Assembly: GCA_036507075.1 (NCBI GenBank) | Contig: DASXQR010000017.1 | Span: 1 to 64,000, forward strand | From: Acidobacteriota bacterium | GTDB taxonomy: Bacteria; Acidobacteriota; UBA6911; JACQSX01 | Length of the DNA stretch: 64,000 bases | Reading direction: 5' to 3' | Shown here: positions 15,459 through 49,333 of the stretch, one piece after another | Layout of the letters: each line of letters starts with the position of its first letter | Position numbering within the stretch: position 1 is the stretch's first letter | Notes under the pieces: model-generated | The model's database searches: none | Seen by the model: the letters and a program-made list of their open reading frames with translations, nothing else | Told to the model about the DNA's origin: nothing | Program-made: the position numbers and the translations under genes

Positions 15459-15515
15459 GTGGCCTTTGTGTCTTTGTGGTGGAATTCTTTTTCACCACAA
15501 AGGCACAAAGGCCAC
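15459..15515. repeat. Near-perfect 23-bp hairpin of 9-mer CACAAAG units
   Basis: gtggcctttgtgtctttgtggtg ... caccacaaaggcacaaaggccac. Confidence 0.85.
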
Positions 15516-15533
15516 AAATGAGGAGGAATTAAA

Positions 15534-16163: not shown

Positions 16164-16280
16164 TCAGTTGTCCGTAGTCCGTTGTCGGTGGTCAGTTGTC
16201 CGTAGTCAGTTGTCCGCTGTTCGATTCGCTGATAACTGACAACAACCGACAACTGACAACTGACAACTGACAACTGACTA
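16164..16280. repeat. Inverted GTTGTCM / ACAACTG 7-mer array
   Basis: tcagttgtccgtagtccgttgtc... and (acaactg)n. Confidence 0.9.
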
Positions 16281-16303
16281 ATGCCTACAGGGGAGTTAAA
16301 TAG

Positions 16304-17287
16304 ATGAAAGGTTTTCAAAAACCGAAAAGACTGGCTTGTACCACCGAAACACTGACCAAAACGTATGGTCATTTTTATGCCCAACCTTTTGAGCGGGGAT
16401 ACGGGACGACGATTGGAAATGCGCTTCGTCGGGTGCTGCTCTCCAGCATCGAAGGAGCCGCCATTACCGCGGTCAAGATCGAGGGCATCCTGCACGAATT
16501 CTCTTCCATTCCGGGAGTGGTGGAAGATGTCACCGACATCATCATGAATCTAAAGACTGTTCCGATCCGGCTGAACGTGGATCATCCAAAAACGCTTTAT
16601 CTTGAATCGAAGGGACCGGGTCCGGTGATGGCAGGTAACATCAAACCCGACCCGGACGTTGAGATCCTCGATCCATCCATCCATCTGGCGACGGTGGGCG
16701 GCGAGGGAAAGCTGTCCATGGAAATGCGGGTCAAGAAGAGCCGGGGTTATGTTTCCTCCGATGAGAACTTTGATCAGGATCTTTCGCTGGGGTATATCCC
16801 GATTGACTCGGTGCACTCGCCGGTGCGCAAGGTGAACTACTACGTGGAGGCGGCCCGCCTGGGACAGGCGACAGATTATGATCGCCTCAATCTTGAGATC
16901 TGGACCAACGGCTGTATTACCCCGCAGGAAGCAACGGCGCGGGCGGCCAAGATTATCAAGGACCATATGTTCATTTTCATCAACTTTGAAGAGGAGCCTG
17001 AGACGGAAGAACCGCAGGTGGATTCCAAACAGGAGGCGATTAACGAAAATCTGCAGAAATCGGTCGACGAGCTGGAGCTTTCAGTCCGCTCGTATAACTG
17101 TCTGAAAAATGCCAACATCAAGACGATCGGCGAGCTGGTGCAGAAGACCGAAGCGGAAATGCTCAAGACCAAGAATTTCGGCCGCAAGTCTCTGAATGAG
17201 ATCAAGGAAATCCTCCAGGATATGGGCCTCCATTTTGGAATGAAGCTTGACGACCTGGGACGCCCGATCCGGGATGAAGTAGCTTAG
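16304..17287 (+). CDS. rpoA: RNA polymerase subunit alpha
   Basis: [44 protein letters not shown]. Confidence 0.99.
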
Positions 17288-17374
17288 TTAGTCTGTTGTC
17301 AGTTGTCCGTGGTCCGTTGGCCTGAAGTCGAAGGTCGATAAGTCGCTGACAACTGACAACTGACAACGGACAAA
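17288..17374. repeat. Inverted GTTGTCM / ACAACTG 7-mer array
   Basis: gtctgttgtcagttgtccgtggtc pairs with gacaactgacaactgacaacggac. Confidence 0.9.
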
Positions 17375-32051: not shown

Positions 32052-33464
32052 TCAGCGCCCCCCGACAATATCCTCTAACCTCAAGGGGCCATCGCGGTCC
32101 CGGTCCTTTGTCTTGTCGTGATAAGAGTGGCATTCCGTGCATCCGGAGCGGACACGCGTGGAAGAATTGTGGCACCGCAGGCACTCTGCCCGGCCGGGCA
32201 AGAGGACATCACGCGTCTTCGTGCTCTCTCTCGCGCCACTGTGGCAGGAAATGCACTGAAGCATCCTGTGCGGTCCATGCGCGAATCGACTGTGGTCGTA
32301 CCAGCGCACGCGAATTTCCGGATCCAACACTTGCGGCAGCCTTGCTGAGGCCCGGCTGGTGTCGCGGATAGGTGCGGCAGTCCTGTAATCCCGGCCGGGA
32401 AGATTCTCCAGTAGATGGCATTCCCGGCAGCGGACGCTGAACAAATATCTTTCGGCTGAGGCGATCTGCCTTTCCATCCATGCCGGCAGGTTGCGCGGCG
32501 CTTCTTCCACCATCATGCTGAGAATGGAAAGCTGGCGGGCGCGATTCCAGTCAACAGGACGTCTCCATTCATTGGGATTCTTACCCGCGTACTTTGAAAA
32601 CGCGATTCGGATAAAAGCGTCCACGATTTCTGGTTTGCTGTGCGGCGCCTGCTCGTCGATGCGTTCCTCAAAGGCGAGGGAGTGGCACGTTTGACAGTCG
32701 CGCTGGAAATTGACCGGAAGCATGTACGCTCTCCGGGCATCCAGGTGATGGCAGGCAACGCAATCCAGTTTTACCGGGCCATGCGGCCCGCGCAGGTCCG
32801 GCCGAAGATGCAGTTGGTGGTTCAGCTTTATCTTGGCAAGATCGGCTGTCTTGTCGCGAAGGAGCCGAAATTCCGGATGATTGGCCTCAAAGCTGGTAAT
32901 CGATTTTTCATACCCGAGGACGGGGCGAACGGGCGGCGCGACGGGTGACGAATTCCGCATTTGGAATGCGCCGGCAGTGGTGGATTTGGATTGGCCGGGG
33001 GCATCGCCGGCGACAATCGGCGCAGTCTTAAGCGAACTATGGCACTGCGTGCAGTTCTGGTCGGAGGCCTGTTTTAACTGGGATTCGCCCTTGTGCTCCA
33101 CGTGGCAACTGGCGCACGGCGGCTGTGCGCCCGCTGCGCCTTGGTATATCTGGTTGATGTGGTGGATGGGTCCCGCATGACATTTTTCGCAGGCCTGGTC
33201 ACTGACAGGGCGGTGGAAGCGCTCCTTCCTCGCGCCGGTGTGACAGGAAGCGCAGTCAGATTCTAAAATGGAATGTGCTGTAGAAAGGGGACCTGGGTTG
33301 TACAATTTATCGTCGCGCATCAGAGCGTAGGCCAGCAACCACACCATTGCCGCGACGAGTGCCGCAATCGATAACCATCGCTTCCAGTTGCGAAACGGAT
33401 GGGGCTTCTGGAAATAATTCAGTTCGATTCGCTGGGCAATCTGTTTGGTTGTTCGCTTGCGCAT
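32052..33464 (-). CDS. Membrane-anchored decahaem c-type cytochrome
   Basis: 10 CxxCH motifs (CASCH, CEKCH, CASCH, CTQCH, CVACH, CQTCH, CRECH, CISCH, CLRCH, CTECH); one N-terminal transmembrane helix. Confidence 0.92.
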   Translation of the reverse strand: MRKRTTKQIAQRIELNYFQKPHPFRNWKRWLSIAALVAAMVWLLAYALMRDDKLYNPGPLSTAHSILESDCASCHTGARKERFHRPVSDQACEKCHAGPIHHINQIYQGAAGAQPPCASCHVEHKGESQLKQASDQNCTQCHSSLKTAPIVAGDAPGQSKSTTAGAFQMRNSSPVAPPVRPVLGYEKSITSFEANHPEFRLLRDKTADLAKIKLNHQLHLRPDLRGPHGPVKLDCVACHHLDARRAYMLPVNFQRDCQTCHSLAFEERIDEQAPHSKPEIVDAFIRIAFSKYAGKNPNEWRRPVDWNRARQLSILSMMVEEAPRNLPAWMERQIASAERYLFSVRCRECHLLENLPGRDYRTAAPIRDTSRASARLPQVLDPEIRVRWYDHSRFAHGPHRMLQCISCHSGARESTKTRDVLLPGRAECLRCHNSSTRVRSGCTECHSYHDKTKDRDRDGPLRLEDIVGGR

Positions 33465-33480: not shown

Positions 33481-34371
33481 TTACGTATATCGCAGCGCTG
33501 CCACCGCATGGACCGCCGCCAGAACCAGCAGCGCGAAAGAGAGGGGTACATGCACAAGGAGCCACCCGTGAAGAAGGTGATGCAGTCGAACTTGCCGCAG
33601 CAATTGACGTCGCTCTTCCACCATGAGCTGCAAATCTTCCAGTTGCTGGTGAAGCTCCGGAGGCAGGATCTTGCGTATCTGATCAAAAACATTCTCCGCG
33701 TTCTGCCTGGTTGAAAGTTTCCCTTCCGCGCGGGCCTGGTCGTGCAGAAACGGCTTTACTTCTTGCAGATAAAAATCGCGCAATGCCGCGTCCGCGGGAG
33801 TCTTTTCAGTCGGGATAGTCACAGTCTTTGGGCGAGCGGACGCGACCTCCATCACAAAAGCCTCGGCTGTGTTCTTTTCCACGATGGCATTAACCAGGTC
33901 ATCCGCTTCCTTCCGCAATTGGTCCAGCACATGATCAATCTGTTCGTAGATGGATTCCATCGGCAGTTGCTCGAGCATTATTCGGGGTATGACCTGCTGT
34001 AATGCGAGGCCTGCAACGCCGCTGATCACAATCACGGTGAACAGAATCATCAGTATTGTTGTAAGCGGACCACCCAGGGAAAAACCCGCATGGAAAAGGA
34101 TCATTGGATAACTGAGCAAGCCCAGCCAGACGTGCCCCTGCATCCAGGTGTAGAGCCGGCCTACCCGCATGGTGGGCTTTTTCTTGCGGGCGTTAAGCAG
34201 CAGCGCAAATAACATCATCGCCGACCCGACGGCGCCATAAATCAAACCCGGCTGGCTCCCGCCCGAAGGGCCCGAAGCGCTCCTGGAATAGGGAATATAC
34301 AGCACGCCTGCAATCGCAAGGATAATCAGGCTGGCCGTGATCCAGGGCTTGCTGTCTCGGTTGATGATCAC
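33481..34371 (-). CDS. Integral membrane protein, probable di-haem b (ferric-reductase-like)
   Basis: Two helices each with His pairs 14 apart (HVWLGLLSYPMILFH; HVPLSFALLVLAAVH); GTGA overlap with upstream gene. Confidence 0.7.
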   Translation of the reverse strand: MIINRDSKPWITASLIILAIAGVLYIPYSRSASGPSGGSQPGLIYGAVGSAMMLFALLLNARKKKPTMRVGRLYTWMQGHVWLGLLSYPMILFHAGFSLGGPLTTILMILFTVIVISGVAGLALQQVIPRIMLEQLPMESIYEQIDHVLDQLRKEADDLVNAIVEKNTAEAFVMEVASARPKTVTIPTEKTPADAALRDFYLQEVKPFLHDQARAEGKLSTRQNAENVFDQIRKILPPELHQQLEDLQLMVEERRQLLRQVRLHHLLHGWLLVHVPLSFALLVLAAVHAVAALRYT

Positions 34372-36545
34372 TGGCGTTCATGCTTGGCAGACGCAAATTG
34401 CGATCCGATGAGCTGCACGTCGAAAAATTCCTGCGGATCCACGCGGTGGGCGGCGTCATGCGGGCAGGCGTAGACACAACTGGGCTCCTTGTGGTCGGTG
34501 CAAAGATCGCAAGCAGTCGCCTTTTTTCTGATTGCAGTGCGGGTCTCACCGGTCACCGGATCTTTTTCCTTTACTTCGAACGGGTGCATGTTGATGTTGC
34601 CGTAGGGGCACTGCTGCGCGCACAAACCGCAGCCAATGCACCAGTCTTCAATGATAATCTCGAGGGACTCCTTGCGATGAATCGATCCGACCGGGCACCC
34701 CACCATGCAAAGCGGATCGCGGCACTGGCGGCACGAAGTCGCCACCAGATATTTGTCAAATCTCAAGCCATCCCGGATCAGACGCGTCACGCCGTCGTGT
34801 GCCGCCGCGCACGCGCGCACGCAGTCATCACAACGGACGCACTTCTCGAGATCCAGGATCAACAGGCTCTGCGCCTCCATCAGGCCCTGGCCGAGAAAGT
34901 CATTCAGCGACGCCGTCTTCAGGAGTGTGGCTTGCTGGCGATTGGACTCCGTGCGCTGGCGCGCGATCGCTTCCAGTTGACGGCGAATATCAGGGAAGCG
35001 CTCCAACATACTGTTAAAATCCTCTTTGGAAATGCGCAGCACTTCCACGTGGTCCAGCGCCGTACAGGTGGCGGTGCGGACCCCCTCTGCCAGCAGGCCG
35101 ATTTCGCCGAAGTATTGTCCGCGCGCGAGATAGGAAAGCACCAAGTCTCCACCCTCGTAATTCTGCGTGACCTTCACATGTCCGATGCGCAACAGGAAGA
35201 ATGACTCTGAAACATCCCCCTGCCGGCAAATGACCTCGCCCGGCTCAAAGCGGAGCAGCTCCACGCGATCTCTCAGGTAGTCTATGAACTCCAGGCTGAG
35301 GTTGCGAAACATAGGGACGCTCCGCAGGTGGTTATCCAGTGCGCGCTGGCGGTATGCCGCGTCCAACTGTGCCTTGAACTGCCGGTTCTTCTGCAGGATC
35401 TGCAAGACATTGCGCAGCATCTCCAGAACCACGCAGTCTTCAGCCGCGCGCGCGGTGGCAGACCTGGGATAGAAATTCAAGCAGGTCATCTCGCCGAACA
35501 GATCTCCCTCTCTGAGTTGAGCCACGGGATTGTCAAGCGGCAGGTCCACGGTGGCATCAACCGGGATGTAGGACTGGGCTGCCGCGTCCGATCTGGGATG
35601 GGCATCGGGGCGGGCGAGCAGGCTGGTCATCTTCTTGAACCAACTTCCCGGCCGGTCACGCTGTGTTCTTACATGCGACAGGGGAGTCTCCACAAAAATG
35701 TCCACCGTTCCGTGAAGAATATAGAAGGCAGTCGAGCCGAATTCTCCCTGCCTGCATATGATTTCCCCTTTCTTGAGGCTGCGCCTGACAACACCGCCTT
35801 CATTGCGGGCGAGAAACGCGCTCGAGATGCCCGAAAAAACCGGATATTCGAGCAGCTCTTCCGCACCCAGCGACTCGCCTTCTTCCAGTCTGGTCCCGAT
35901 CAGTTTGCTGGCCGTAATGGCCCCTGTGGGACAGGAGACCATGCATTCGCCGCAGTTTACGCAACTGGATTGGCCCATGGGCTTATCGTTGTCAAAGGAG
36001 ATGCTGGTAAAGTATCCCTTGCCCATGCGTCCGATTACGTCATTGTGTTTGACATCGGTACAGGCGCGCACGCAGCGGTCACAAACAATGCAGGCGCTGT
36101 GATCGATGGCAATTGTTGGATTGGAGCGGTCGCCTCCTTTGGAATAAGCACGCGGCGAAAATGAAGGGTGCTCGATCCCCATTTTTTGCGCCAGCACTTC
36201 GAGTTCGCAGTCGCCGTATTCTCTATGACGTTCACAGGGAACGGGGTGATCGGCCAGCAACAGTTCCACCAGTGTTTTTCGCGACTGCTCCACGCGGTCG
36301 CCGCGCGTGTACACCTTCATGCCGTTTTCAGCCTGACGGACACATGAAGCCGCAAATACGCGGGCGCCTTCCACCGCCACGACACACACCCGGCACACCC
36401 CCACGGGAGCGAGGTTTGGCTGGTGACAGAGCGCTGGTATGGAAATGCCCAGAGCCAGGGCGGCTTCCCACAAAGTTGTTCCTTCAGCGACGGTAACCGG
36501 TTTGTCGTCTATTGTCAGGCTGATCGTCCGCGCTTCCGTGCTCAC
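34368..36545 (-). CDS. Fe-S/cyclic-nucleotide-binding fusion protein (NuoG-like N-terminus + 2 cNMP domains + 4x[4Fe-4S] domain)
   Basis: IPALC..GVCRVC..ASC; CIVCDRCVRAC, CVNCGECMVSCP; FGEM..PRSAT, FGEI..VRTAT; four C-terminal 4-Cys groups. Confidence 0.9.
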   Translation of the reverse strand: MSTEARTISLTIDDKPVTVAEGTTLWEAALALGISIPALCHQPNLAPVGVCRVCVVAVEGARVFAASCVRQAENGMKVYTRGDRVEQSRKTLVELLLADHPVPCERHREYGDCELEVLAQKMGIEHPSFSPRAYSKGGDRSNPTIAIDHSACIVCDRCVRACTDVKHNDVIGRMGKGYFTSISFDNDKPMGQSSCVNCGECMVSCPTGAITASKLIGTRLEEGESLGAEELLEYPVFSGISSAFLARNEGGVVRRSLKKGEIICRQGEFGSTAFYILHGTVDIFVETPLSHVRTQRDRPGSWFKKMTSLLARPDAHPRSDAAAQSYIPVDATVDLPLDNPVAQLREGDLFGEMTCLNFYPRSATARAAEDCVVLEMLRNVLQILQKNRQFKAQLDAAYRQRALDNHLRSVPMFRNLSLEFIDYLRDRVELLRFEPGEVICRQGDVSESFFLLRIGHVKVTQNYEGGDLVLSYLARGQYFGEIGLLAEGVRTATCTALDHVEVLRISKEDFNSMLERFPDIRRQLEAIARQRTESNRQQATLLKTASLNDFLGQGLMEAQSLLILDLEKCVRCDDCVRACAAAHDGVTRLIRDGLRFDKYLVATSCRQCRDPLCMVGCPVGSIHRKESLEIIIEDWCIGCGLCAQQCPYGNINMHPFEVKEKDPVTGETRTAIRKKATACDLCTDHKEPSCVYACPHDAAHRVDPQEFFDVQLIGSQFASAKHERQ

Positions 36546-38224
36546 TGCAGGCTTCCCTCCGCTTTAAAGCAGGTTCCGGAAGGACACGTGCGTCGCACCA
36601 TGTGCTCTTCGACTTCCTGGGGAAAATGTTTGATCACCGAAGTAATCGGATTGGCGACCACCTGGCCCAGGCCGCAAATGGAAGTCATCAATAAAGTGTC
36701 GGCAAGCCGGTGGATGGTTTCCAAATCCTCTTTCGTTCCGCTTCCGTGGGTAATGCCGTAAATGATATCCACCATTTTCTGAGAACCAACGCGGCAGGGA
36801 ACGCACTTACCGCACGATTCATTGCGGTAAAAACGAACCTCGTTGAGAGCCAGATCGATCATGCATGTGCCTTCGGCAATCGCCACGATTGCGCCCGATC
36901 CAAGCATCGCTCCGGCCTGTGCCAGTGTCTTAAAATCGAGCGGGATATCGGCCATCGATGCAGGCAAGAATCCAGAGGAAGGTCCTGACGGGGCAAAGGC
37001 TTTCATTTTTCTGCCGCCTGAAATACCGCCGGCCAGTTCGAAGATCACGCGAGAAGCCGGCGTGCCCATCGGAATCTCAAACACCCCGGGGTTATTAACA
37101 TGTCCGCTGACCGCCACCCACTTCAATCCGGTGAAATCTGGTGCTCCCTGTGCCTTGAACCATTCGGCGCCCTTGATCAAAATAACGGGCACATAGCAGA
37201 GAGTCTCCACGTTGTTGATCACGGTCGGCTTGTTCCACAAACCGTTGGTTACCGGGAAGGGTGGCTTGTTGCGTGGCTGTCCCCGCCGGCCTTCGATCGC
37301 TTCCAGCAGCGCGCTCTCTTCGCCCTGGATGTATCCTCCCGGACTGACGAAGACTTCCAGATCAAAATTCATTCCTGACCCCAGAAGGTTCTTTCCAATC
37401 AATCCATCGCCCCGGGCACGAGCGATTTCCTGCTGCAGTATCTCTATCTGTTCTTCGTATTCGTGGCGGATATAGATGATCCCTCGCTGGGCGCCGGTCA
37501 CCACGCCTGCTGCGATCATTCCCTCGATCAGCAGATAGGGAAGATTTTTCATGATTTCGCGGTCTTTGAAGGTTCCCACTTCGCTTTCGTCTGCGTTGCA
37601 AATGACGTACTTTTCTCCGGCGGAGGCGTTGCGAACCAATTCCCATTTCAATCCTGCCCCGAAGCCCGCGCCTCCCATACCTTTCAAGTTGGCCGCCTTC
37701 AACTTTTCGATGGTTCCGGTAAGGTCACGTGAAGAAATCAGCGTTTTCACAGCGCCATACCTTTCACGTTCGTCTGCATAAGGGTCGGTCAGAAATCTGC
37801 GGTTCAGGGGGGGGAATTTTTGAGGTTCGGGAAGGTTGCCTCGGATGGCTGCGCCGGCGAGTTCCAGCGCTTCGTCGATTGATTTCCGCGCGTAGATATG
37901 ATCATTGACGGCAAAGGCGGGGGCCCCGTCGCACTGGCCCAGACACGAGACCGGACGCACCACTACTCCTTCGGCATGCTGATCGCGTACCATCTGGTTT
38001 ACCTGCCGGCGCAGTTGGTCGCAGCCGTGGAGGTGGCAAGGCATGTCGGCGCAGATGTGGATCTCAACCGGAGGCGGAGGCTGCAGGCGAAAATGGGGAT
38101 AAAAGCTCGCCACGCCGTACAACTCATAAACGGGAACGCGGATCCGGGCAGAAAGCTGCTGAAGCTCCTTCTCGGGAATGTAGCCAAATCTATGCTGGAT
38201 GGCCCGGAGCTCGTTAATGATCAT
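36542..38224 (-). CDS. NuoE-NuoF (HoxF-like) diaphorase fusion with [2Fe-2S], FMN/NAD(P)H site and [4Fe-4S]
   Basis: VASFYPHF, CADMPC, CLGQC, GMGGAGF..GLKW, CNADESE, GEESALLE, ESCGKCVPCR, SICGLG; ATG 38224 preferred, ORF open to 38287. Confidence 0.9.
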   Translation of the reverse strand: MIINELRAIQHRFGYIPEKELQQLSARIRVPVYELYGVASFYPHFRLQPPPPVEIHICADMPCHLHGCDQLRRQVNQMVRDQHAEGVVVRPVSCLGQCDGAPAFAVNDHIYARKSIDEALELAGAAIRGNLPEPQKFPPLNRRFLTDPYADERERYGAVKTLISSRDLTGTIEKLKAANLKGMGGAGFGAGLKWELVRNASAGEKYVICNADESEVGTFKDREIMKNLPYLLIEGMIAAGVVTGAQRGIIYIRHEYEEQIEILQQEIARARGDGLIGKNLLGSGMNFDLEVFVSPGGYIQGEESALLEAIEGRRGQPRNKPPFPVTNGLWNKPTVINNVETLCYVPVILIKGAEWFKAQGAPDFTGLKWVAVSGHVNNPGVFEIPMGTPASRVIFELAGGISGGRKMKAFAPSGPSSGFLPASMADIPLDFKTLAQAGAMLGSGAIVAIAEGTCMIDLALNEVRFYRNESCGKCVPCRVGSQKMVDIIYGITHGSGTKEDLETIHRLADTLLMTSICGLGQVVANPITSVIKHFPQEVEEHMVRRTCPSGTCFKAEGSLQ

Positions 38225-38399
38225 TTGTCCCTTTCGTGACGCTTCTTTAACTCTTGCGATCCGGTAAGTGTGGGAGAAGCAGGTCAAGCCAATAAAGGAA
38301 AACTACGCCGCCACTACCGAGCGAGTTTGACAGAAGTAGCTGAATTTTATCGCAAAGCAAGCACCACGTATGTAATAAAAATAGCGGAGGAAAACCAGC

Positions 38400-39746
38400 T
38401 TGGTTGTTCATCGCACCCTGAACATCGCCGCACGATGGATCATACTGTCTGCGATCGTCGTGTTTCCGCGTTTCCTGCTTTCTGAAAGTACTGAATACCG
38501 TAACACCGAACCTCAGACTGCCGGAGCCGCGGTGGCTTACACGGGAGCCGGGTCGTGTACGTCCAGTAACTGCCACGGCAGCGTGTGGCCCAGGACTGGA
38601 AGTCGCATCAAGCAGAATGAATACAAAATATGGTCAGGCAAGGACCGGCATGCCAAGGCCTACAACGTGCTTCTTGAGCCTCGCTCCAAGCTGATTGCGC
38701 GCAACCTGGGAATTGATCGGGCCGAGACCGCAGGCAAATGTCTCGACTGCCACGCGCTGAACGTTCCCACGGGCGAGCAGGCGAAGAGCTTTGATCTTTC
38801 CGACGGTGTAAGCTGCGAGTCCTGCCACGGGCCTGCGGCCGGCTGGCTGGGGCCGCACACAACACGAGGGCAGACCCATCAGCGGAACCTTGCCCTCGGA
38901 ATGTACGAGACAAAAGATCTGCCCAAGAGGGTAGAGCGTTGTCTTTCCTGCCACATAGGCACCGAGAAAAAGACTGTCGACCATGAAATGATTGCTGCCG
39001 GACATCCTGACCTCATTTTCGAATTGGACACATTCAGCGCCCTGATGCCGCCTCACTGGGAGGAGCCAAAGAGCGCCTGGCAGGGAATGCGCCGATGGGC
39101 TGTGGGCCAGGCAGTGGCGCTGGGAGCGTCAATGGAGCAGTTGGAACGCAGGGTTCGCGGAAGTCCCTGGAACGGCTGGCCCGACTTTGCTGACTTCGAA
39201 TGCTTTTCCTGCCACCATAATCTGGTGCTTCCGAGCGCGCGCCAGGCCCGCGGCTACCCGGGACGCGCTGGTATTCCTCTGTGGAATCCATCGCGTTACA
39301 TGGTATTTCGGCAAGTCGTGGCGGCCATCTCTCCCGCAGAGCGGCGCATTCTGGATCAACTGATCGAAGAACTGAAGCAGCGCCTTCAAAACGCCGGATC
39401 AGGCCGAACGTTTGTGGCGGAAACGGCATCGCGGATTGCGCAGTTGATGGATAACCTGGTTCCGCAACTGGGAAAGGCTTCATACAGCGAATCGCTCGCC
39501 CGCACCGTTATGCGGGCCATCGCTGCAGATGGTGACGCCATTTCCAACGCTGGAATGCGCTCCGCCGAACAGGCCACGATGGCGCTGGAAGCTCTGTACA
39601 ATTCATACGAACAAACCACGGAAAAAAACAACAAACCGCTCAACGCTCAAATCAGCCGCCTGTATGAAACGCTCCAGTCCACTTCAAGATATGATCCCGA
39701 ACAATTCGCAGCGCAATTGAAGCAAGTGCGCAACCTCATCCCTTAG
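38400..39746 (+). CDS. Exported multihaem cytochrome c (c554-like N-domain, helical C-domain)
   Basis: YTGAGSCTSSNCH (CX4CH), CLDCH, GVSCESCHGP, CLSCH, CFSCH; TTG start after GGAGG. Confidence 0.88.
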   Translation: MVVHRTLNIAARWIILSAIVVFPRFLLSESTEYRNTEPQTAGAAVAYTGAGSCTSSNCHGSVWPRTGSRIKQNEYKIWSGKDRHAKAYNVLLEPRSKLIARNLGIDRAETAGKCLDCHALNVPTGEQAKSFDLSDGVSCESCHGPAAGWLGPHTTRGQTHQRNLALGMYETKDLPKRVERCLSCHIGTEKKTVDHEMIAAGHPDLIFELDTFSALMPPHWEEPKSAWQGMRRWAVGQAVALGASMEQLERRVRGSPWNGWPDFADFECFSCHHNLVLPSARQARGYPGRAGIPLWNPSRYMVFRQVVAAISPAERRILDQLIEELKQRLQNAGSGRTFVAETASRIAQLMDNLVPQLGKASYSESLARTVMRAIAADGDAISNAGMRSAEQATMALEALYNSYEQTTEKNNKPLNAQISRLYETLQSTSRYDPEQFAAQLKQVRNLIP

Positions 39747-40054: not shown

Positions 40055-43000
40055 TCACGGAGAAGCATCGGTCACCGTGTAAAGTTTCCCGTCGCGCAGA
40101 TACATTCGCTGCATCTCCTTCAAATTCAGGGGACGTGCTCCACGGCGGCCAAAGACCGCGATCTGGTTGCCGCTTTCGTCTGCGGCGCGATCGCGGTCCA
40201 AGCCCTTTGATAATGCCACGGCGGGGCCTCGTGTGCGGTATGTGGCGATCAGTTCGGGAGCGGGCGCCGGGCTGAAGCCGTAGTTGCCTTCTGTTCTGGC
40301 CGGGGAGGTCAATTGCAGTACACGCAATCCGTTTTGGCCGTCAGCGATGTAAGCGTAAAGGCTGGCACTGGTCATGGCCACTTTCACCGCATGAGCATCG
40401 TTGATTTTTCCGCCGGCGTTGTAAGTCAAAAAGAGCCTGGGAAATTCCGGCCTTTCGATGTCGAGAATCACCAACCCGTTTTTGCCGGCAGCGACATAGG
40501 CATACGTCCGTGCCAGGTAAATATCGCGGGCATCTTCAAGGCGCACCGTCCCGCTTTCCACGGGATGCGCTTTTTCAGGAATAGTCACATCGACCACCTT
40601 CAGCCCCTGGTCGTCTATTATGAAAGCGTAGCGAAATTGAATCGCGACCGCTTTGGCCTTCGAGAGAAATGGGCCTTCGATGATGGATGCCACTCTTGGT
40701 TTCAGGGGATCTGTCAGGTTCAGTATCGCCAAGCCGCGATCGCAGGTGATGTAGACATAGTTTCCCGCAATCGCCAGATTGCTCGCGCCGTTGAGCAGGC
40801 CATTGGGATTGTAGGTGAGTGAGCGTTCCAGGAAGTTGTTGGTTGGGTCTCCGTCCAGCAGAGTCGCGGCGCCAACAAGGATCAATCCTTCGTACCTGTC
40901 TGTAAAAAAGATGTACCCGTAAATCGGCGCGGGAAGTTGTTCGTCGTTTTCCTGTCTGTGACTTCGCGCCGGATCCACTGCCAGGGTAGAGGGCGCGGCC
41001 ACGGCGGTCGCGAATTTGCTTTTCACGTAAAAGCGCTGACCCGCCGGCGAGACCGGCGCTGACACCATTCTTTCTGAAAACCCCTTGTGGTCGATCTGCG
41101 CCACGTCGAAAACTTCAAGCCCCCCCGGGCCGTTCGCCGTGTAGAGATATTCCCCGCGCAGCTGCAGGCCGGCGGTTTCGCCGTGGTGATGATAGGCTTC
41201 TTTTAGCTGCTCGCCACGCTGCCTGTGTTTCCGGTAGTTCTCAGGATAGGCAATGCGATGCAGCTCGCTGCCGATGACTGCCTGCGGCTCGTCCCGCTCG
41301 GTGACGACGACAGCCTCGAACCCGTGTTTCTCTTCTCCCACATAGACGAACCTTCCCATGAAATTCACAAAATTGGTTCCCTGCATCAGCAACTGTGCCA
41401 TCACGGCATTGTTGTCGTTGTACTTTGAAACGTGGCAATCCGTGCAGGTCTTTGTCTCCGCGGCCCTCACTGTGTGCGGCACGTGGGTGCTGAACGCCTG
41501 GCCGCTGAAACCTTCGGCTGAGACAGTTTGCTGTTGTGAATAAACCCACTCGCGATTCCCCGTCTGTGAGGCAACAAGAACCGCGCTGCGTGATGCCGCG
41601 GGCGCCACACGGTGGCCGGTTACAGTGCCGTCGATTCCCAGCATATAGACATCGTCGCGAACGACTTGAAAGTTGTAGGAAGTCCAGTTTCGGGTGGTCT
41701 GTCCTTCGTTGTGCAGCATCGGTCGTTTCTTGTTTGCAGTCATCGACAGGTGGCACCCAAAACATCCGGTCATCCATGAGGAATGGCACGCGTAGCAGGT
41801 CATGCTGGAGTTGGGATGCGCCAGCAGTTTTTCATCTGCAGGTACTCCCCAGGTGGTTCCGTCCTTCTGAAGAGTTTTGGCCAGCCGGGACTTCTCACTG
41901 TAATGAGACAAACCGGGCGTGACCGAGTCCAATGTCTGCACGATTTCCCACTCCTGCCCCTCCTTGACCATGGAACGCTGGATTATCCTGTCTCCGATGA
42001 CCTCAAAGCGTTTCCGGCCCCAGGGAGTACGCAGCGTGCTCAGGTTTGTTCCCTGAGGCGGCGCCGCAAAGCCGCTGGTCTTGAGCGTGGTACGCTGCGT
42101 CACGGTCCCGTGGCAGTCAGTGCAGTCGATTTCAATGGCGCCACGCGGCTCGTTATAGAGCTTGCCGTTGCCGTGTGCGTCCTGCTCAAAGTGGCAGTCG
42201 ACACAGTGCATTCCTTTCTCCAGATGGATATCCTTCAAATGCACTGCCTTTCTGAATTTGTCAGGATCGCTATGAGGAACAATCTTGCCGTCTTTATCAA
42301 GCAGGTTGCCCTTTCGATCCTGTTTGTATACGGCGCGAAAGACCCAGCCATGCCCGTGGAAATCGGCAAATTGCGTGCGCTTCAGTTGCGGATTGAGATT
42401 GGTAAGATCCGCCAGGAATTGGGGATCGGACCAAAGGCCCCGGATTGCCGAGCCTTCAGGATTGCGCTGCTGAATCTCGGCCACCTGGTTGGGCGAAAGT
42501 TTCTTTTCCCTGGACGGATACATCAGTTCGCCATCGGTCTCGTTGTCCCACCAGGTGTATCCGAAGTAGGTGCTCACCATGTTCGTGCCCGGATGCATAT
42601 GACACACCATGCACTGGCTGGAGGGGATGGAGCGGGTCAGGCGATGGCGTATCGGATGCCCGGATTGATTTTTGGGAATAGTGGGATCGGGATTTGCCGT
42701 GCGTCCTGAATTTCCATAGACCGCATAAGCGCCCGAATGCAACGGCGAACGATCGTTTGCGTAGATGACGTGGCATGCAGTGCAACCGCTGTGTCGGTAA
42801 TCGCCGGGCTGATCGTTCGTACCCGGAAAATGCAGTATCGGATCGAGCAGTCTGGTCTTCTGCAATCCGAGGAATACCGGGTCGGTGCGATTGGCGGTTC
42901 CGAATCCCCGCACACTGAGGTTTTTGTCCGGCTTGCCGGGCTCTTCCTCCGGATTTGGAATCCCAATATCCGGCACCCGCAAGCCGCCGCGTTCAAATAC

Positions 43001-43813
43001 GCGGAGCACGTTTCCCGGCTGGGAGATTCCCCACTGCGATAGCGGATCCAGGTAAGGGAGAATCCCCTTCGCGCGCGTTTCCTCCGGTGTCGGGGGCGGA
43101 ACAGTTTGAATCCGCTGCGGCGTGCCGTCGCGTGCGTAACTCTCACCGAAGTGAGCATCCTTGAGCGGATAAGCGCCGTTGTTGTACAAAGCCGCTCCCC
43201 AAAGCATCGCGCCATGGGTCATCATGCTCTTTCGCACGTTGTAGGCTTCACGCGTATGACATCCTGCCGATCCACAGGTCTGATCCAGGACTCGAAGGTC
43301 GCCGGGGTTGTTAAAGCGGACAAATTCCTCGCTTTCCTGGTTCCACTGCGCGCCGATGCGAACGGGATTGGCGCTTGTCTTGAAAAAATCCTTCGATCGT
43401 GGCTGTGGATGCGCCTTCTCCTTCGCGCTGGTATCAGCGTTGCCGCCATGGCAATCGGTACATCCAAGGCGTACGGTTTCCTGTGCATGCATCGGTTCCA
43501 CGTTGGTGTGACAACCGGTGGAAGTGCATCCTGCACTCTTTCTGTCGGCTTCCTGCTGCGTTTGAAAGAGCAGGCTTTCTCGAAGGTCTGAAGAGGCGCG
43601 GATCTGAGAGAAAGTATTATAAGACCCGGTTTCGGGGCCCTTCTTGATCACGGACTGCCGGCCCGCCAGGGCCTCGTGCCGCGTTTGTGGCGAAGAGTCG
43701 CGAGCAACCTCTACAGGATCCAAAGCCGGCCGGAGCCCGGCGTTGCCCAGCGCGATAATTGCCGCACCGCCGATCAACGCAAGAATTCTCAGCGCCATCA
43801 ATCCTTGTTGCAT
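40055..43813 (-). CDS. Large exported multihaem cytochrome with C-terminal LVIVD beta-propeller repeats
   Basis: 8 CxxCH + 2 CX4CH; repeats [45 protein letters not shown]; signal peptide. Confidence 0.88.
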
Positions 43814-46083
43814 CAGTACGTTACCGCCAGTCCGACGAAAGTCGAGAAAAGTGTTTTCGACGTGAAAATGTCCCGGAAGCCGCGGCCCGGAATAAATGCT
43901 CCTACGCCGCCATTGATGATGAAGTTATTATTCAGCCATGGGCGCCACTTGACTCCGAGGCTCGCATCCATGCCGACAAAGCGGCGGATTCCGGACTGAA
44001 AAAGCAGGGCCTCCAAAACTTGAGTATGTGCAAACCACATCACGTTGACGTTGGCTGAGCCTCGTAATTTCGGAGTGACTTCTGCATCCATTCCCAGACC
44101 ACCCAGGTACAGTCCCGGGTTGACATAATTAGCCTGGCCTTCATCCTTGCTGCTTCGCAGACTTGGATTCAAGCTGAACCTTTGAGTGAGCCCCAAGCCC
44201 GTTCCCGTGAGCCGAAATCCTTGTCGCGTCCAAAAGCTGTTGCCCGCTCCGGCAAAGTTCACGTTATCGAAAATACTGTCGAAACCGCGCGAGCGATTGT
44301 CATTCGGGTTATCGTCGCCCGACACGTAGAAGAAAGACGCCTTATACCGCTTCCAGTCCCTGTCCAGTGACAACTCCAGAGCCGCCAGTTGCGCATTGAT
44401 GTCGGAATTGAGCGGCGCGAAGACCGCGTTTTGACCTGCAATCTGGCTGGGGATTTCCTGGCCCAGCACCTGGTAAAAGGCATGATCAATATTCCAGGAT
44501 CCGAAGTGGCCGTCTCCGGTCCATCCGAGGTAAACCGCGCTGATACTTTTGGGAATGACGTTCCCCACCTGGGCGGGACGAACCAGAAAACCATTCTCGT
44601 CAAAATGTACGCTGGGCCGGTCATGATTGAAATGAGCGCTGAATTGCGCCGTATAGCCGAGCGCGCCCAGGAAATCCTGGATGTAATAATTTGCGATTAA
44701 CACTTCCTGGCGTCTTTGCCTGAAAGTATTCAACCCGCTGTTAGTGTCCTTTTCCAGCATGTTGAAATAGGCCAGATTGTACTGGTGCTTGTTGGCTTTA
44801 AAGTTGCCAAACAGGCGTACGCCCGGCTCATTGTCCGAGAAGACAAAACCGCGAAAATCACTGGTGAACCCCTGCGTGCCCACCCGCAGCGACGCGAAGT
44901 CATAGAAGGGACTGGTCTCGGCCAGACGCGCTTCCACAAATGCCTCCTGCAGGGCGATGTGGGAATCGCTTCGCGTGTTGAAACGGCGCACATCGATATT
45001 CACCACCGCGTTTTCGCGGGCCTCAAGATAATTGACATTGAAAACGGGTGTGATGCGAAACCGAATGTCCACCGGCTTGAAAGTAGAGTAACCGCGAAAC
45101 AAGTCTGCCGACAGGATGAAATTCTGGTTGAACAGAAATGTTTCTCCGCGCGCGAAGAACTCCGGATTGTTCGGCTGCAAAGAACTGGGAGGACTGGGAA
45201 CGGGAAAACGCCGGTATTCCTCCAGGGAATCGCTGATGGCGCTGAAATTCAAAAACCAGCGATTGCCGAAAATCGGGTAATCGCCCTTCAGGACATTCTG
45301 GTTGAACGGGTCCCACCAGTGGCCGCGCACATAAGGATAGTCTCCATTGGCGGAGCGATACGGGGTGTAGCGATCCCAGCCGGGAAAGCCGATGCGCCAC
45401 CGATCAGCCACCGGAATGAAGTCTTCAGTCGCCTCCACGCGCGGGCGGTTGGAAACACGGCCGGCGTATCCAAGTGGCTGGTACTGGGAGGTGCGTGACG
45501 GATGCGCCACGTTTTCGACTGTTTCTGCTTCTTCAACCTGAGGCACGGGCCTGCGAAATGCCGGCGCAGTCTGGCTGGTCTCGGGTAGCTCCGGCTCTGC
45601 TTCCTTTGCGCCGGGTTCCTCCTGACCGGGGCGCCGGCGCAATCTTCGATCCGGGGGTACGCTCTCTTCGACCTTCATTTCTAAATTGAGCGTATATCGG
45701 TCGCGCAGAATAATTTCCCTGACTGACAGAGTCGGAAATCCGCTGCGCTCAGCAGTCAGGTCGTAAGTCCCCGGCTGAAGATTTTCAATCAGGAAGTTTC
45801 CTTCATTTCCGGTAACGGCTCCTTGCTGTTCTCCTGTTTGTCTGTTTATGACAGTGATGATGACCTGCGACAGGGGCGCGCCGGCAGTGTCGCGCACAGT
45901 CCCCTGCAGACGCGCTTGTTCGGACAGCCCCGGGCGTTCAGGGCGCCGAATCTGTGGCCGTGCCGCTTCCTTTCCCAACAAGGAAGAAAGGAAGCAGGAA
46001 AAAACAACCACGAGCGGAAGAAGTGTGTACCGCAAGCAGCCAACTGACCCGATCAAGCGCCCTTCTCTGGAGATCAAATTCAA
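43813..46083 (-). CDS. Outer-membrane beta-barrel with N-terminal carboxypeptidase-regulatory-like domain
   Basis: [26 protein letters not shown]; aromatic amphipathic strands, LQEAFVE, C-terminal VGLAVTY; stop overlaps next start. Confidence 0.75.
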
Positions 46084-46088
46084 CGGAA

Positions 46089-46115
46089 GTAGAGACGCGA
46101 TATTATCGCGTCTCT
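46089..46115. repeat. GTAG-type REP palindrome in the divergent intergenic gap
   Basis: GTAGAGACGCGATATTATCGCGTCTCT. Confidence 0.75.
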
Positions 46116-46195
46116 GTGTTCGAATTGCAAAACTCTCCCCGTTGTGTAAAAATCTCCATCCTTTCCACTCCCTTCAATGCGTGTTTGAGCTCACG

Positions 46196-47890
46196 ATGAC
46201 GCGACGCGACTTGGCATTTGTTTTGTTTCTCTTTGCCCTTTGCTGTTTGACCAGCCGGGTCTCGGCTCAGACCGGGACCATCCGGTTTATTCCGCCCCGA
46301 GTGCCGGCTGCGGTAGAAGAGACGGTAGCAGAGAAGGTGTCGGACTCAAGCATTCTCACTGCCAGTGAAGTGGACTTGACAGTAAAGGGCGCCCTGCAGG
46401 CAGCCGGCGTTCCGGGATACTCCGTTGTTGTAGTAGACAGGGCTGGAAGAATTCTCGCGGTCTGGCAGCAGCCCGGAGCCACTCTGGAAACCGCCGAGCG
46501 GGCCCTTTCCCTGGCTCGAACGGGCGCTTTTTTCAGCAACGATCAAGCGCCGCTCTCTTCTCGAACGGTGCGCTTCATCAGCGGCATTCATTTACCGCCG
46601 GGAATTCGGCTGCAGCCGAACGCAGACCTTTACGGGATTGAAAATACCAATCGGGGCTGCGATTTCAATGCGCAATTCAACGAAGGCAAGTTTGTCCCGC
46701 GCGCCAAGTCGCTTCTGGCATTGCTGCGCGATGAGAATCCGCAACTTGGCCCCTCGCTTCCCTGCAATGCTTTCGACCAAAGTGGATGCGGAGTTGGAAT
46801 CAGCACGGGCAAGTACTCAGGACGCTTTGAAGAGGGCCGCTTGATTGACATCGAGCTTGACGAGAAGTTGGATCAAAAGCCGCTGCAGGTGGACGGAGGC
46901 GGCATACCGTTATTTAAAGACTGCCGCGTAGCCGGCGGTATAGGTATTTTTGGTATTCCGCCGGCGCAGGCAGAATTTGCAGCGCTGGTGGGAAGTATTT
47001 CAGGTGGGCCTTCATTTGGGCCGCTTTCCTGCCTCCCGCCGCCCGGTGCTGTTTTCCTCGCCGGATTACGGCTTCCTTTCATTGGGCCATTGGCAGCGCA
47101 ATTGCTCCAGTCTGGAAAGACTACTTTGCCGGGAACCAGCCCGGGAACGTCCGTGGGCGCGTATCTCGTGCTGCCGCGTGATGGCGTCGTCGCTGCGGAT
47201 GGATGGCTGGTTGGGGGGCCTGATAATCCAAAAAACAGCGCTGAACTGTCAGCTTCCGAAGTTCAGACCATTGTCCAGCAGGCGATTGATCAGGCAAATA
47301 AGACGCGCGCAGCGATTCGGCTGCCGCCTGGCAGCCGCACCCGTATGGTCATTGCCGTTTCTGATGTGCGCGGCAATCTGCTGGGCCTGTATCGGATGAC
47401 CGATGCCACCGTGTTCAGCATCGATGTGGCTGTGGCCAAATCACGTAACGTGGTTTACTTCAGTAGTGAGCGGCTCGACCCGCGTGATTTACCCGGCGTC
47501 ACGCCGGGCACAGCCGTGACCAATCGAACCATTAGCTTTGGATCCCAGCCGCTGTTTCCCCCGGGCATTGATTCTACCCTCCATGAACGGGGTCCCTTCT
47601 TTGACCTTTTTTTGCGCGACCTGGCCAGTCCCTGCTCTCAGGGATTCGACACGGAAAACAAGGAGAACGTTAACGGGATTGTCTTCTTTCCTGGCAGCGC
47701 GCCCCTTTTCAGAAATGGAAAGCTGATCGGAGGACTGGGGATCAGCGGCGACGGCGTGGATCAGGACGACGTGGTCACCGCTGCTGGAACCATCGGCTTT
47801 GAGGCGCCGCTTTCCATTCGCGCCGATCAATTTCTTTTGCGCAGCGTGCGCTTGCCCTATATAAAGTTCAATCGGAACCCTGAGAACTGA
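46196..47890 (+). CDS. Exported tandem GlcG/HbpS-family haem-binding protein
   Basis: Two domains: VVVVDRAGRIL...GGGIPLFK..VAGGIG and IAVSDVRGNL...SIDVAVAKSR...PGSAPLFRNGKLIGGLGISGDGVDQDD; signal peptide from ATG 46196. Confidence 0.8.
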   Translation: MTRRDLAFVLFLFALCCLTSRVSAQTGTIRFIPPRVPAAVEETVAEKVSDSSILTASEVDLTVKGALQAAGVPGYSVVVVDRAGRILAVWQQPGATLETAERALSLARTGAFFSNDQAPLSSRTVRFISGIHLPPGIRLQPNADLYGIENTNRGCDFNAQFNEGKFVPRAKSLLALLRDENPQLGPSLPCNAFDQSGCGVGISTGKYSGRFEEGRLIDIELDEKLDQKPLQVDGGGIPLFKDCRVAGGIGIFGIPPAQAEFAALVGSISGGPSFGPLSCLPPPGAVFLAGLRLPFIGPLAAQLLQSGKTTLPGTSPGTSVGAYLVLPRDGVVAADGWLVGGPDNPKNSAELSASEVQTIVQQAIDQANKTRAAIRLPPGSRTRMVIAVSDVRGNLLGLYRMTDATVFSIDVAVAKSRNVVYFSSERLDPRDLPGVTPGTAVTNRTISFGSQPLFPPGIDSTLHERGPFFDLFLRDLASPCSQGFDTENKENVNGIVFFPGSAPLFRNGKLIGGLGISGDGVDQDDVVTAAGTIGFEAPLSIRADQFLLRSVRLPYIKFNRNPEN

Positions 47891-47908: not shown

Positions 47909-49333
47909 ATGGCCAAAAAGAAATACGATCTGATCGTCATTGGTTCAGGACCTGCCGGAGAAAAAGGCGCTGCACAGGCGGCTTATTTCGGAAAAAAAGT
48001 AGCCCTCATTGAAAAGGAGCCTGTGCTCGGGGGCGCCGCTGCCAACACGGGGACTCTTCCTTCTAAAACATTGCGAGAGACTGCTCTCTACCTGTCCGGT
48101 TTTCAACAACGCGAATTGTACGGCGTCAATATCGGAATGAAGGAAAAACTAACGGTTCCAGATTTTTTGTTCCGGGAAAGACTGGTAAAGGAAAATGAGA
48201 GAGCCAGGATCATGGAAAATTTGAAGCGCCACAACGTGGAGCTGTATATGGGGATCGCCTCCTTTGTCGACCCGCACACGGTCTTGATCCATCCAGCCAG
48301 ATCCGCGGATGTGCAGATTCAGGGGGCGGTCATTCTTATCGCCACTGGTTCATATCCTCATCGGCCGCCCATTTTTCCATTTCATGATCCGCGCATTTAT
48401 GACTCCGATTCCATTCTTACCATGCACAATATGCCTCCCACGATGGTGGTGGCCGGCGGAGGCGTGATCGGCTGCGAATATGCGTGTATGTTTGCGGCTT
48501 TCGGTATCGATGTTTCGCTTGTGGAAGTACGAGAGACGTTAATGGGTTTTTTGGATCCGGAAATCTCCGACATGCTGCGCGTGAGAATGGAGGCGATGGG
48601 AATTCACATGAAGATGCCTGACTCCATAGAGACGGTTGAGCCGGGCGCTGAGACCATCGAAATCCGGCTACAGTCGGGCTCTGTGCTCAATGCGCATACG
48701 ATTTTGGTCGCCTCCGGGCGCAGTGGCAACACTGAGACCCTGGCTTTGCAGAAAATCGGAATTGCGACCGGCAAACGTGGACAAATAGAGGTGAATGAGA
48801 ATTATCAGACCAATGTGCCAAATGTGTATGCCGTCGGGGATGTCATCGGCTTTCCGGCCCTGGCCTCTACCTCGATGGAACAGGCCCGTGTTGCAGTGGT
48901 TCACGCATTCGATTTGAAGTACAAAACACAACTGGCCAGCGTGCTGCCTTACGGAGTCTTCACCATTCCGGAATGTTCCATGGCTGGCGAGACGGAAGAC
49001 ACCCTTAAGGAGAAAAAGATACCCTATGTCGCGGGTAAGGCGCTCTATTCCGGCAACGCCCGCGGACAAATCATTGGTGACAACACGGGCTTTCTAAAAC
49101 TCCTTTTCCGCGAGGAAGACATGAAGCTCTTGGGTGTTCACATAATCGGCGAGCAGGCAACCGAAATTATTCATGTGGGTCTTAGCGCCCTGCTGCTCGG
49201 CGCCGGAGCCGACCTTTTCATTCAGACCTGCTACAACTACCCCACCCTCACTGAGATGTACAAATACGCCACCTATGACGCGCTCGGGCGCAAGGCGGCG
49301 AGACGCAAAAGCAAGGTCGCAGCTCAAGCGTAA
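47909..49333 (+). CDS. sthA: Soluble pyridine nucleotide transhydrogenase
   Basis: YDLIVIGSGPAGEKGA, GTLPSKTLRE, GDVIGFPALASTSMEQAR, NYPTL; lacks the lipoamide dehydrogenase CxxxxC. Confidence 0.9.
   Translation: MAKKKYDLIVIGSGPAGEKGAAQAAYFGKKVALIEKEPVLGGAAANTGTLPSKTLRETALYLSGFQQRELYGVNIGMKEKLTVPDFLFRERLVKENERARIMENLKRHNVELYMGIASFVDPHTVLIHPARSADVQIQGAVILIATGSYPHRPPIFPFHDPRIYDSDSILTMHNMPPTMVVAGGGVIGCEYACMFAAFGIDVSLVEVRETLMGFLDPEISDMLRVRMEAMGIHMKMPDSIETVEPGAETIEIRLQSGSVLNAHTILVASGRSGNTETLALQKIGIATGKRGQIEVNENYQTNVPNVYAVGDVIGFPALASTSMEQARVAVVHAFDLKYKTQLASVLPYGVFTIPECSMAGETEDTLKEKKIPYVAGKALYSGNARGQIIGDNTGFLKLLFREEDMKLLGVHIIGEQATEIIHVGLSALLLGAGADLFIQTCYNYPTLTEMYKYATYDALGRKAARRKSKVAAQA

Follow-up and report, generated by a model that had tools for sequence, protein, structure and literature searches.

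A tandem cyclic-nucleotide-binding iron-sulfur protein in a predicted NADH-to-cytochrome conduit of a soil Acidobacteriota bacterium

The closest described counterpart of the system considered here is the ptdABCDEFG cluster, named in marine bacteria. There, PtdE is described as a cyclic-nucleotide-binding protein with 4Fe-4S clusters, two of which are named, PtdF as a ferric-reductase-like membrane protein, PtdG as a periplasmic decahaem protein, PtdD as a tetrahaem protein, PtdC as an FAD/NAD(P) oxidoreductase, and PtdA and PtdB as a pentahaem protein and a porin, respectively (bioRxiv 10.1101/2023.11.21.568154). A related arrangement is encoded in the window analysed here, a stretch of 64,000 nucleotides (contig DASXQR010000017.1 of assembly GCA_036507075.1, positions 1 to 64,000) from an Acidobacteriota bacterium whose source is soil rather than the marine setting of ptd. 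Its central gene, on the minus strand at 36545..34368, has a GTG start and encodes a protein of 725 aa (P0001) in which iron-sulfur (Fe-S) modules are joined to two cyclic-nucleotide-binding (CNB) domains. This Fe-S/CNB gene is the second of four co-oriented genes, preceded by a fused NuoE-NuoF and followed by a 296-aa membrane protein and a decahaem cytochrome c. By description in the preprint and not by sequence, the last three products have the same content and order as PtdE-PtdF-PtdG, and a neighbouring tetrahaem protein of 448 aa matches PtdD. The window form differs from the one described in carrying a HoxU-like module at the N-terminus of the Fe-S/CNB protein, in having NuoE-NuoF in place of PtdC, and in its four C-terminal clusters as against the two named for PtdE. 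No pentahaem protein or porin resembling PtdA or PtdB was recognised among the open reading frames (ORFs) scanned with Pfam between window positions 18615 and 52857, and no description of a HoxU/NuoEF-coupled form was found in the literature, although tables S7/S8 of the preprint could already include Acidobacteriota or NuoEF-linked forms.

Parts of this architecture are shared with other known systems. The HoxEFU, NuoEFG, HydABC and FdsABG diaphorases likewise combine a NuoE and a NuoF partner, with intact motifs, and a segment like the HoxU-like N-terminal 210 residues of the window protein; in the latter, however, no hydrogenase, molybdopterin domain or complex I Q-module follows, and the predicted output is a HycB-like module together with a membrane haem protein. 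The HycB/HydN/DmsB ferredoxins, such as HycB3 and HycB4 of structure 7qv7, share the 16 Cys in four motifs, whereas the window module is fused behind two CNB domains, carries invariant His583 and His696, and is paired with a predicted haem membrane protein instead of a catalytic subunit. Tandem CNB domains with canonical cassettes are shared with PKG and PKA regulatory subunits, and the models of two bacterial examples of CNB control, mycobacterial Pat and family 2B encapsulin, match the second CNB domain (E 2e-19 and 9e-19, respectively), but the module under control here would be an Fe-S electron wire. No described precedent for an Fe-S electron wire controlled by CNB domains was found in the literature. 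In the Tmc and Hmc complexes of sulfate reducers and in NOX/MsrQ-type proteins with a ferric-reductase domain, a cytoplasmic electron source, two stacked b haems across the membrane and a periplasmic acceptor are combined; the window operon would resemble them in overall logic, yet it shows no sequence membership in these groups and lacks an HdrD-like CCG subunit. The decahaem protein has a faint match to TmcA (E 6e-7). A term search of a Desulfuromonadia cytochrome survey (0 matches) and a preprint on Tenderiales yielded nothing relevant.

Weighing these likenesses and the evidence below, we judge it slightly better than an even chance that the Fe-S/CNB protein is the cytoplasmic Fe-S subunit of a four-protein transmembrane conduit, probably quinone-independent and controlled by a second messenger, that passes electrons from NADH to periplasmic cytochromes. 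The window operon would then be an NADH-coupled variant of a widespread PtdEFG-type module, rather than encode a NuoG that has lost its catalytic domain.

A preliminary description, drawn from the letters of the window alone, had reported at 34368..36545 a NuoG-like Fe-S relay with two CNB domains in place of the catalytic domain. One ORF does occupy these coordinates, on the minus strand, and the plus-strand frame there is interrupted by stops. The product is predicted to be cytoplasmic, without a signal peptide or a notable transmembrane segment, and the three strings quoted from it (FGEMTCLNFYPRSAT, FGEIGLLAEGVRTAT and HPVPCERHREYGDC) are all found in the protein. Homologues were compared in an alignment of 65 rows drawn from several phyla, of which 54 were used for counts in the N-terminal region of full-length forms. 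The N-terminal [2Fe-2S] and two [4Fe-4S] motifs named in that description were recovered both by Pfam and in this alignment. The [2Fe-2S] domain (residues 6-80, 36306..36530; this and all following features of the protein lie on the minus strand) matches Fer2_4 at E 5e-19, and each of its Cys residues (C40, C51, C54, C68) is present in 53 of 54 rows. The ferredoxin-type pair of [4Fe-4S] sites (residues 146-211, 35913..36110; C152/155/158/162 and C195/198/201/205) was assigned from Pfam Fer4_9 / Fer4_Nqo3, with the Fer4 dicluster / Fer4_Nqo3 match spanning residues 143-211, and every Cys of its two CxxCxxCxxxC(P) motifs is retained in 53/54 full-length rows. Against NCBIfam, residues 8-214 scored 207 bits with the N-termini of NADH-dependent (group A6) [FeFe]-hydrogenases, 171 bits with HoxU and 127 bits with NuoG, the HoxU model being matched at positions 4-209 of 238. 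Among solved structures, the N-terminus aligned with formate dehydrogenase alpha subunits and HydA1 (E 6e-42 to 2e-36). Neither a molybdopterin nor an H-cluster catalytic domain was detected C-terminally in Pfam and NCBIfam scans of the Fe-S/CNB protein, in which full-length models stayed far below their cut-offs.

Between these two N-terminal parts lies a degenerate, His-ligated [4Fe-4S] site (residues 89-127, 36165..36281), H100-x3-C104-x2-H107-x5-C113, identified through the alignment with HydA1 and a weak match to NADH-G_4Fe-4S_3 (PF10588; 27.9 bits, cut-off 27). In the alignment with HydA1 (7q4v_A), H107 stands opposite the second Cys of the usual H-x3-C-x2-C-x5-C site, just as the preliminary description had read it. 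Its further proposal, that two His and two Cys hold an unusual cluster here, did not survive comparison: the Cys-to-His change is not conserved among homologues, since residue 107 is mostly Gln. At position 107, the 54 aligned full-length homologues show Gln 28 times, His 12 times, Glu 5 times and Gly 3 times, and a motif scan of 271 fetched proteins, 126 of which bear the site, gave Gln 106, His 17, Glu 2 and Pro 1. His is found at this position in the closest relatives (P0003-P0006). Each of C104 and C113 is missing from 11 of the 54 rows, and none of the Cys of the site is present in the aligned alpha subunit of FoDH1 (7vw6_A), the best solved relative, whose His-ligated cluster site is likewise degenerate. 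The region is thus most simply viewed as a decaying cluster site, as far as these alignments go, and nothing supports a site-differentiated cluster with an O or N ligand (Gln, His or Glu) at position 107.

The family to which the protein belongs is large. In a word-indexed protein search, 4,116 of the 8,000 candidates scored reached E <= 0.001; the 120 best clusters all comprise proteins of 714-749 aa, 60-70% identical to the query at 96-100% query coverage. The full architecture is common to more than 120 clusters. An exhaustive search of representatives at 50% identity gave 1,615 at E <= 1e-30. Where members are named, the annotation goes no further than 'cyclic nucleotide-binding domain-containing protein' or 'CRP-like cAMP-binding protein/Fe-S-cluster-containing dehydrogenase component'. 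In a sample of Acidobacteriota, a match at E <= 1e-80 was obtained in 17 of 301 genomes, a count that takes in the window's own genome, where the gene is present in a single copy, and one flagged unpublished genome (G049); four of these matches are full-length and 13 start at about residue 213-236.

Two main forms are distinguished in a wider sample. Fifty-nine loci were fetched from species-representative genomes, namely Acidobacteriota, Planctomycetota, Verrucomicrobiota, 'Deltaproteobacteria', Pseudomonadota and Cloacimonadota metagenome-assembled genomes, and scored by tblastn. A relative is present in 58 of the 59; the remaining locus (L057) was removed because it holds the N-terminal module only, at 37% identity and with no CNB domain, and another (L015), mis-scored owing to a split match, was moved to the full-length group on finding the full gene and NuoEF. 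The full-length form accounts for 34 loci. NuoEF adjoins the gene in 32 of them, and contig ends truncate the remaining two; the membrane protein is present in 30, the decahaem protein in 29 and the tetrahaem protein in 21. The form without the N-terminal module accounts for 24, two of them cut at the contig start and so placed here provisionally; NuoEF adjoins none of these, and the membrane protein is found in 21, the decahaem protein in 20 and the tetrahaem protein in 12. The shorter proteins start some 20-30 residues ahead of the first CNB domain (CNB1). In Gemmataceae, the same four genes occur in permuted order. When 53 rows of the shared region, six short ones having been dropped, were placed in a quick maximum-likelihood tree, full-length forms fell on one side of a single branch (SH-aLRT 84), a pattern that may reflect a single, though not proven, origin of the fusion with the N-terminal module.

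These distributions bear directly on the model offered in the preliminary description, in which a protein of the NuoG/FdhA/HydA type had its catalytic domain replaced by CNB domains, so that a bound nucleotide would alter the gap between two Fe-S arrays. The domain order is indeed as it stated, and the alignment of H107 with the missing Cys and its presence in the nearest relatives also speak for it. The idea of replacement, however, is not borne out, as the two CNB domains and the four-cluster ferredoxin form a unit of their own in 24/59 loci, with membrane and decahaem proteins again as partners, and HoxU, for its part, is a free-standing module to which nothing is appended. Because the forms that lack a first array keep both CNB domains, holding two arrays apart is not the purpose of these domains. 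Together with the variability of the His107 site, this leaves that model very improbable. Since the shorter unit exists alone and a single branch separates off the full-length forms in the quick tree, a HoxU-like NADH-input module appears to have been fused onto an existing CNB-ferredoxin protein, and it is most likely, judging from the sequences compared, that the NuoG-like part represents such an addition.

Further architectures occur among the relatives. One protein (P0189) of 1,483 aa has NuoE, NuoF, the HoxU-like module, CNB domains and Fer4 in a single chain, which may be an artefact of gene calling or a frameshift. One or two FHA domains precede the CNB tandem and the four-cluster ferredoxin in three relatives (P0151, P0160 and P0175), a fourth (P0194) ends in a NUDIX domain, and several others carry 260-400 unassigned N-terminal residues. 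PilZ is a c-di-GMP receptor fold, and in one 'Deltaproteobacteria' locus (L033, 5953-7860, plus strand) a complete PilZ domain (residues 289-388; E 4e-13, model positions 1-99 of 102) interrupts the phosphate-binding cassette of CNB2, the second of the CNB domains. Directly upstream of one form without the N-terminal module (L041), a gene for an SthA-like flavoprotein (4553-5968) is 52% identical to the SthA of the window; two ESM Atlas clusters of 156 and 81 members from Pseudomonadota are listed as Pyr_redox_2 + CNB + Fer4 and serve as an unverified lead only. Long Ala/Pro-rich insertions between the third and fourth ferredoxin Cys motifs were seen in two Verrucomicrobial proteins without the N-terminal module (L044, 6043-7965; L054, 6028-8334), where this segment reaches 178 aa in the alignment as against 34 aa in the window protein. 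As read from these sequences, the constant unit of the family is the CNB tandem and HycB-type ferredoxin with the membrane protein and the decahaem cytochrome; the N-terminus varies, and the part found there would either feed in electrons by oxidising NAD(P)H or be a further domain for signalling.

Both CNB domains proposed in the preliminary description are present with intact phosphate-binding cassettes. The Pfam cNMP_binding model (PF00027) matches at E 2.3e-40 with 136.9 bits against a gathering cut-off of 27.5, in three stretches that correspond to two domains, the first being split by an insertion. CNB1 (residues 233-400, 35346..35849) was delimited by Pfam, conservation and the genome scan; it contains an insertion of about 60 aa and the cassette G351-E352...R361-S362-A363-T364. 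CNB2 (residues 401-530, 34956..35345; Pfam 432-516, 83 bits in the genome scan) has the cassette G480-E481...R490-T491-A492-T493. Across the 65 rows, G351, E352 and T364 are kept in all and R361 in 61, while G480 is kept in 65, E481 in 59 and R490 in 58. Residues 326-530, a stretch of 205, align with the tandem CNB domains of PKG (E 2e-21). The mean frequency of the top residue is 0.63-0.68 in the CNB domains, 0.68 in the [2Fe-2S] domain and 0.48-0.50 in linkers. In PKA and CAP, the cassette Glu binds the 2'-OH of the ribose and the Arg binds the phosphate, and CNB-fold proteins with other ligands usually lack this Glu/Arg pair. Such conservation makes it very likely that the CNB domains are functional ligand sensors, and a regulatory role for the tandem is plausible. 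The genome also encodes three class III nucleotide cyclases and has ten cNMP-domain matches in addition to the three stretches of the Fe-S/CNB protein; within the window, a GGDEF diguanylate cyclase gene is found at 61082-62560.

The tandem might instead be purely structural, a platform for dimerisation or docking that links the Fe-S modules to the membrane subunit and binds no regulatory ligand. This would suit the rigidly fixed distances between domains: in most rows, 33 aa separate the last N-terminal Cys from CNB1, 80 aa separate CNB1 from CNB2, and 72 aa separate CNB2 from the first C-terminal Cys. The conserved insertion of CNB1 could likewise be an interface. A pure scaffold, however, would have no reason to keep the Gly-Glu and Arg-Ser/Thr-Ala residues of both cassettes in 58-65 of 65 rows across several phyla, and relatives add FHA and PilZ signalling domains, the latter sitting within the CNB2 cassette itself; the scaffold explanation is accordingly held to be unlikely. 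The FHA- or PilZ-bearing relatives lend support to a regulatory role, and control of electron flow by a cyclic nucleotide is put at, or just short of, an even chance.

The C-terminal module (residues 561-705, 34431..34865) is a ferredoxin of the HycB/HydN type with four [4Fe-4S] motifs, as indicated by NCBIfam, the alignment with 7qv7 and conservation. The four groups of four Cys that had been ascribed to a DmsB/HydN-like domain were located at C569/572/575/579, C605/608/613/617, C636/639/642/646 and C679/682/690/694, and further Pfam Fer4 motifs cover residues 569-698. All 16 Cys are kept in 59-65 of the 65 homologues. Over its full length the module can be aligned with HycB3 and HycB4 from the hydrogen-dependent CO2 reductase (7qv7; E 1e-15), and the HydN model scores 57.6 bits over residues 561-706, below its equivalog cut-off of 260. 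With the C-terminal Cys and the cassette residues both conserved among the 65 homologues, the original domain observation is far beyond chance; it is confirmed as real, and its domain reading as correct, at the level of sequence, and the interpretation built on it is partly supported. Conserved residues outside the cluster motifs include C355 in the cassette helix of CNB1 (61/65), C264 (57/65) and C494 (52/65), together with H583 and H696, which hardly vary, if at all, within the HycB-like module. These residues may represent a thiol switch or an additional metal site.

The partners of the Fe-S/CNB protein are encoded on the same strand in close succession. The fused NuoE-NuoF (581 aa, 36542..38287, minus strand), assigned by Pfam and NCBIfam, retains intact N1a, FMN (GMGGAGF) and N3 motifs. 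Its stop overlaps the start of the Fe-S/CNB gene in a GTGA sequence, the same overlap recurs between the stop of the latter and the start of the membrane-protein gene, and a gap of 17 nt separates the membrane-protein gene from the decahaem gene. The membrane protein (296 aa, 33481..34371, minus strand) has about five hydrophobic segments, the last two of which are joined by a large loop. It contains two H-x13-H pairs, H80/H94 and H274/H288, that are kept in 46-49 of 50 rows. The pairs are spaced as in di-haem b proteins, in which two His pairs stand about 13 residues apart on two transmembrane helices. The decahaem cytochrome c (470 aa, 32052..33464, minus strand) is anchored by an N-terminal transmembrane segment at 31-49; it is also matched by Pfam and has 10 CxxCH motifs, and exactly 10 are present in 40 of 41 near-full-length homologues. 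A four-protein complex of the kind described is considered quite likely.

The direction of flow and the place of quinones were weighed separately. The complex could instead run inward, from periplasmic donors such as Fe(II) or reduced humics to NAD+ or another cytoplasmic acceptor, or it could work through quinone, the His-pair protein then being a quinone-reactive cytochrome b within an alternative NADH:quinone or quinol:cytochrome c oxidoreductase. Such schemes would accommodate the facts that known enzymes can run their NuoEF/HoxU modules in either direction, that the decahaem protein faintly resembles NrfH (E 0.007), and that the forms without the N-terminal module have no evident cytoplasmic donor. 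Electrons at haem c potentials would however have to reduce NAD+ against the membrane potential, which is energetically unfavourable when the operon provides no coupling subunit, and neither an NrfD-type protein nor any other quinone-site family was found in the operon by Pfam or NCBIfam. Inward or quinone-linked operation is on these counts doubtful, more so than a mere scaffold for the CNB tandem, and outward flow from NADH to the cytochromes is judged somewhat more probable than not. Automatic names such as 'HndC family' suggest a hydrogenase, a reading that was rejected because the operon contains no hydrogenase catalytic gene in Pfam or NCBIfam scans.

Under the proposed mechanism, NADH would be oxidised by the fused NuoE-NuoF, which has the FMN and NADH site and whose gene is translationally coupled to the Fe-S/CNB gene, and electrons would pass from FMN to N3. 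They would then travel through the HoxU-like [2Fe-2S] and two [4Fe-4S] clusters to the four [4Fe-4S] clusters of the HycB-like module, from these to two b haems in the membrane protein, and on to the ten periplasmic c haems of the decahaem cytochrome, which may hand them to the tetrahaem protein or the octahaem LVIVD protein and finally to a further acceptor. The CNB tandem, which in all forms directly precedes the HycB-like module at a fixed spacing, would bind cAMP or cGMP and thereby switch or tune the flow; it could do so by repositioning the HoxU-like relative to the HycB-like module, by governing how the protein docks to the membrane protein's large loop, or by controlling oligomerisation. 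The tandem and HycB-like module would be the ancestral core, matching PtdE, to which various modules for input or control would have been fused, the HoxU-like module with NuoEF among them. When electrons leave and the protons of NADH stay inside, membrane potential is dissipated, as established in bioenergetics. The conduit would then be an energy-dissipating outlet for reducing power, opened only on a second-messenger signal. Tight control is therefore expected of such an outlet, which fits a sensor built into the wire as well as the recurrent addition of FHA and PilZ domains. The full proposal, that binding of cAMP or cGMP to the tandem gates electron traffic between an NADH dehydrogenase module and an export path of b haems and decahaem that bypasses quinone, with an FHA (phosphothreonine) or PilZ (c-di-GMP) switch in sister lineages, is put forward tentatively, as less likely than not.

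Several observations weigh against this reading. In the neighbourhoods of the 59 loci, the forms without the N-terminal module mostly have no adjoining NAD(P)H-oxidising gene. A search for longer forms fused to NuoEF found none, returning only a formate dehydrogenase, and an apparent fusion of about 1309-1314 aa in another genome (G009) proved to be an open frame overlapping a separate NuoEF gene. CNB-fold domains of other proteins bind other ligands. The ESM Atlas model of the Fe-S/CNB protein is poor (pTM 0.36). The membrane protein belongs to no Pfam family (E up to 10) and to no NCBIfam family. Its placement among ferric reductases was rejected, as the PF01794 model did not hit it in the genome scan (E up to 1) and hhalign with the genome's own ferric-reductase fragment gave a probability of 0.75%; the ferric-reductase likeness comes only from automatic cluster names and a model look-alike (TM-score 0.72). 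Haem binding, independence from quinone and the direction of electron flow are all inferred from the sequences. No bench study of any family member was found in the literature, where the ptd preprint is the sole relevant paper, and that preprint states that Ptd function 'remains completely unknown' (10.1101/2023.11.21.568154).

Several neighbouring genes accompany the module. The tetrahaem protein (448 aa, 38400..39746, plus strand) is a divergently transcribed, conserved neighbour resembling cytochrome c554. A protein of 1252 aa with 8 CxxCH motifs and LVIVD repeats (40055..43813, minus strand) is conserved beside both forms, in 16 of the 59 loci; it is 61% identical to a Cloacimonadota protein (L027), matches the ExtM cytochrome model weakly (E 5e-22, far below the cut-off), and may be the periplasmic end of the chain. 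The start of its gene abuts the stop of a 756-aa CarboxypepD_reg-domain gene (43813-46083, minus strand). The latter is overlapped by the listed start of a 680-aa ORF (45848-47890, plus strand) that has a C-terminal HbpS-like domain (PF03928) and recurs in 15 of the 59 loci, in Acidobacteriota; its homologues begin to align at about residue 143-193, and the true start is therefore probably downstream of the listed one. An SthA equivalog (Si-specific NAD(P)+ transhydrogenase) follows at 47909-49333 on the plus strand (558 bits, cut-off 465), and genes related to it adjoin the module in 4 of the 59 loci. Positions 1-17300 contain part of a ribosomal-protein/SecY/Adk/Map/RpoA cluster, so the module lies in a chromosomal core context with no obvious island. 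No RNA-based control was indicated, as the window has 0 Rfam matches and 0 tRNAs, and a scan for promoters and terminators found no more sites than in shuffled sequence. Five short contigs of a soil RNA library fall on the operon at 97-99.5% identity; neither strand nor level can be read from them and carry-over of DNA is possible, and they are a weak hint of transcription.

If the proposal is correct, abundant phyla of soil and fresh water that do not count among the known electrogens would have a dedicated, quinone-free route by which NADH electrons cross the inner membrane to multihaem cytochromes. This would amount to a new regulated route of extracytoplasmic electron transfer in soil Acidobacteriota, Planctomycetota and Verrucomicrobiota, belonging to a family that is large (the 1,615 representatives noted above) and so far annotated only generically. 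The protein would be the first nucleotide-gated Fe-S electron relay, and switching by a second messenger at the electron wire itself, and not at transcription, would constitute a new control principle in bioenergetics. It would further provide a handle on extracellular and periplasmic electron transfer, as well as a natural ligand-gated electron switch for synthetic biology.

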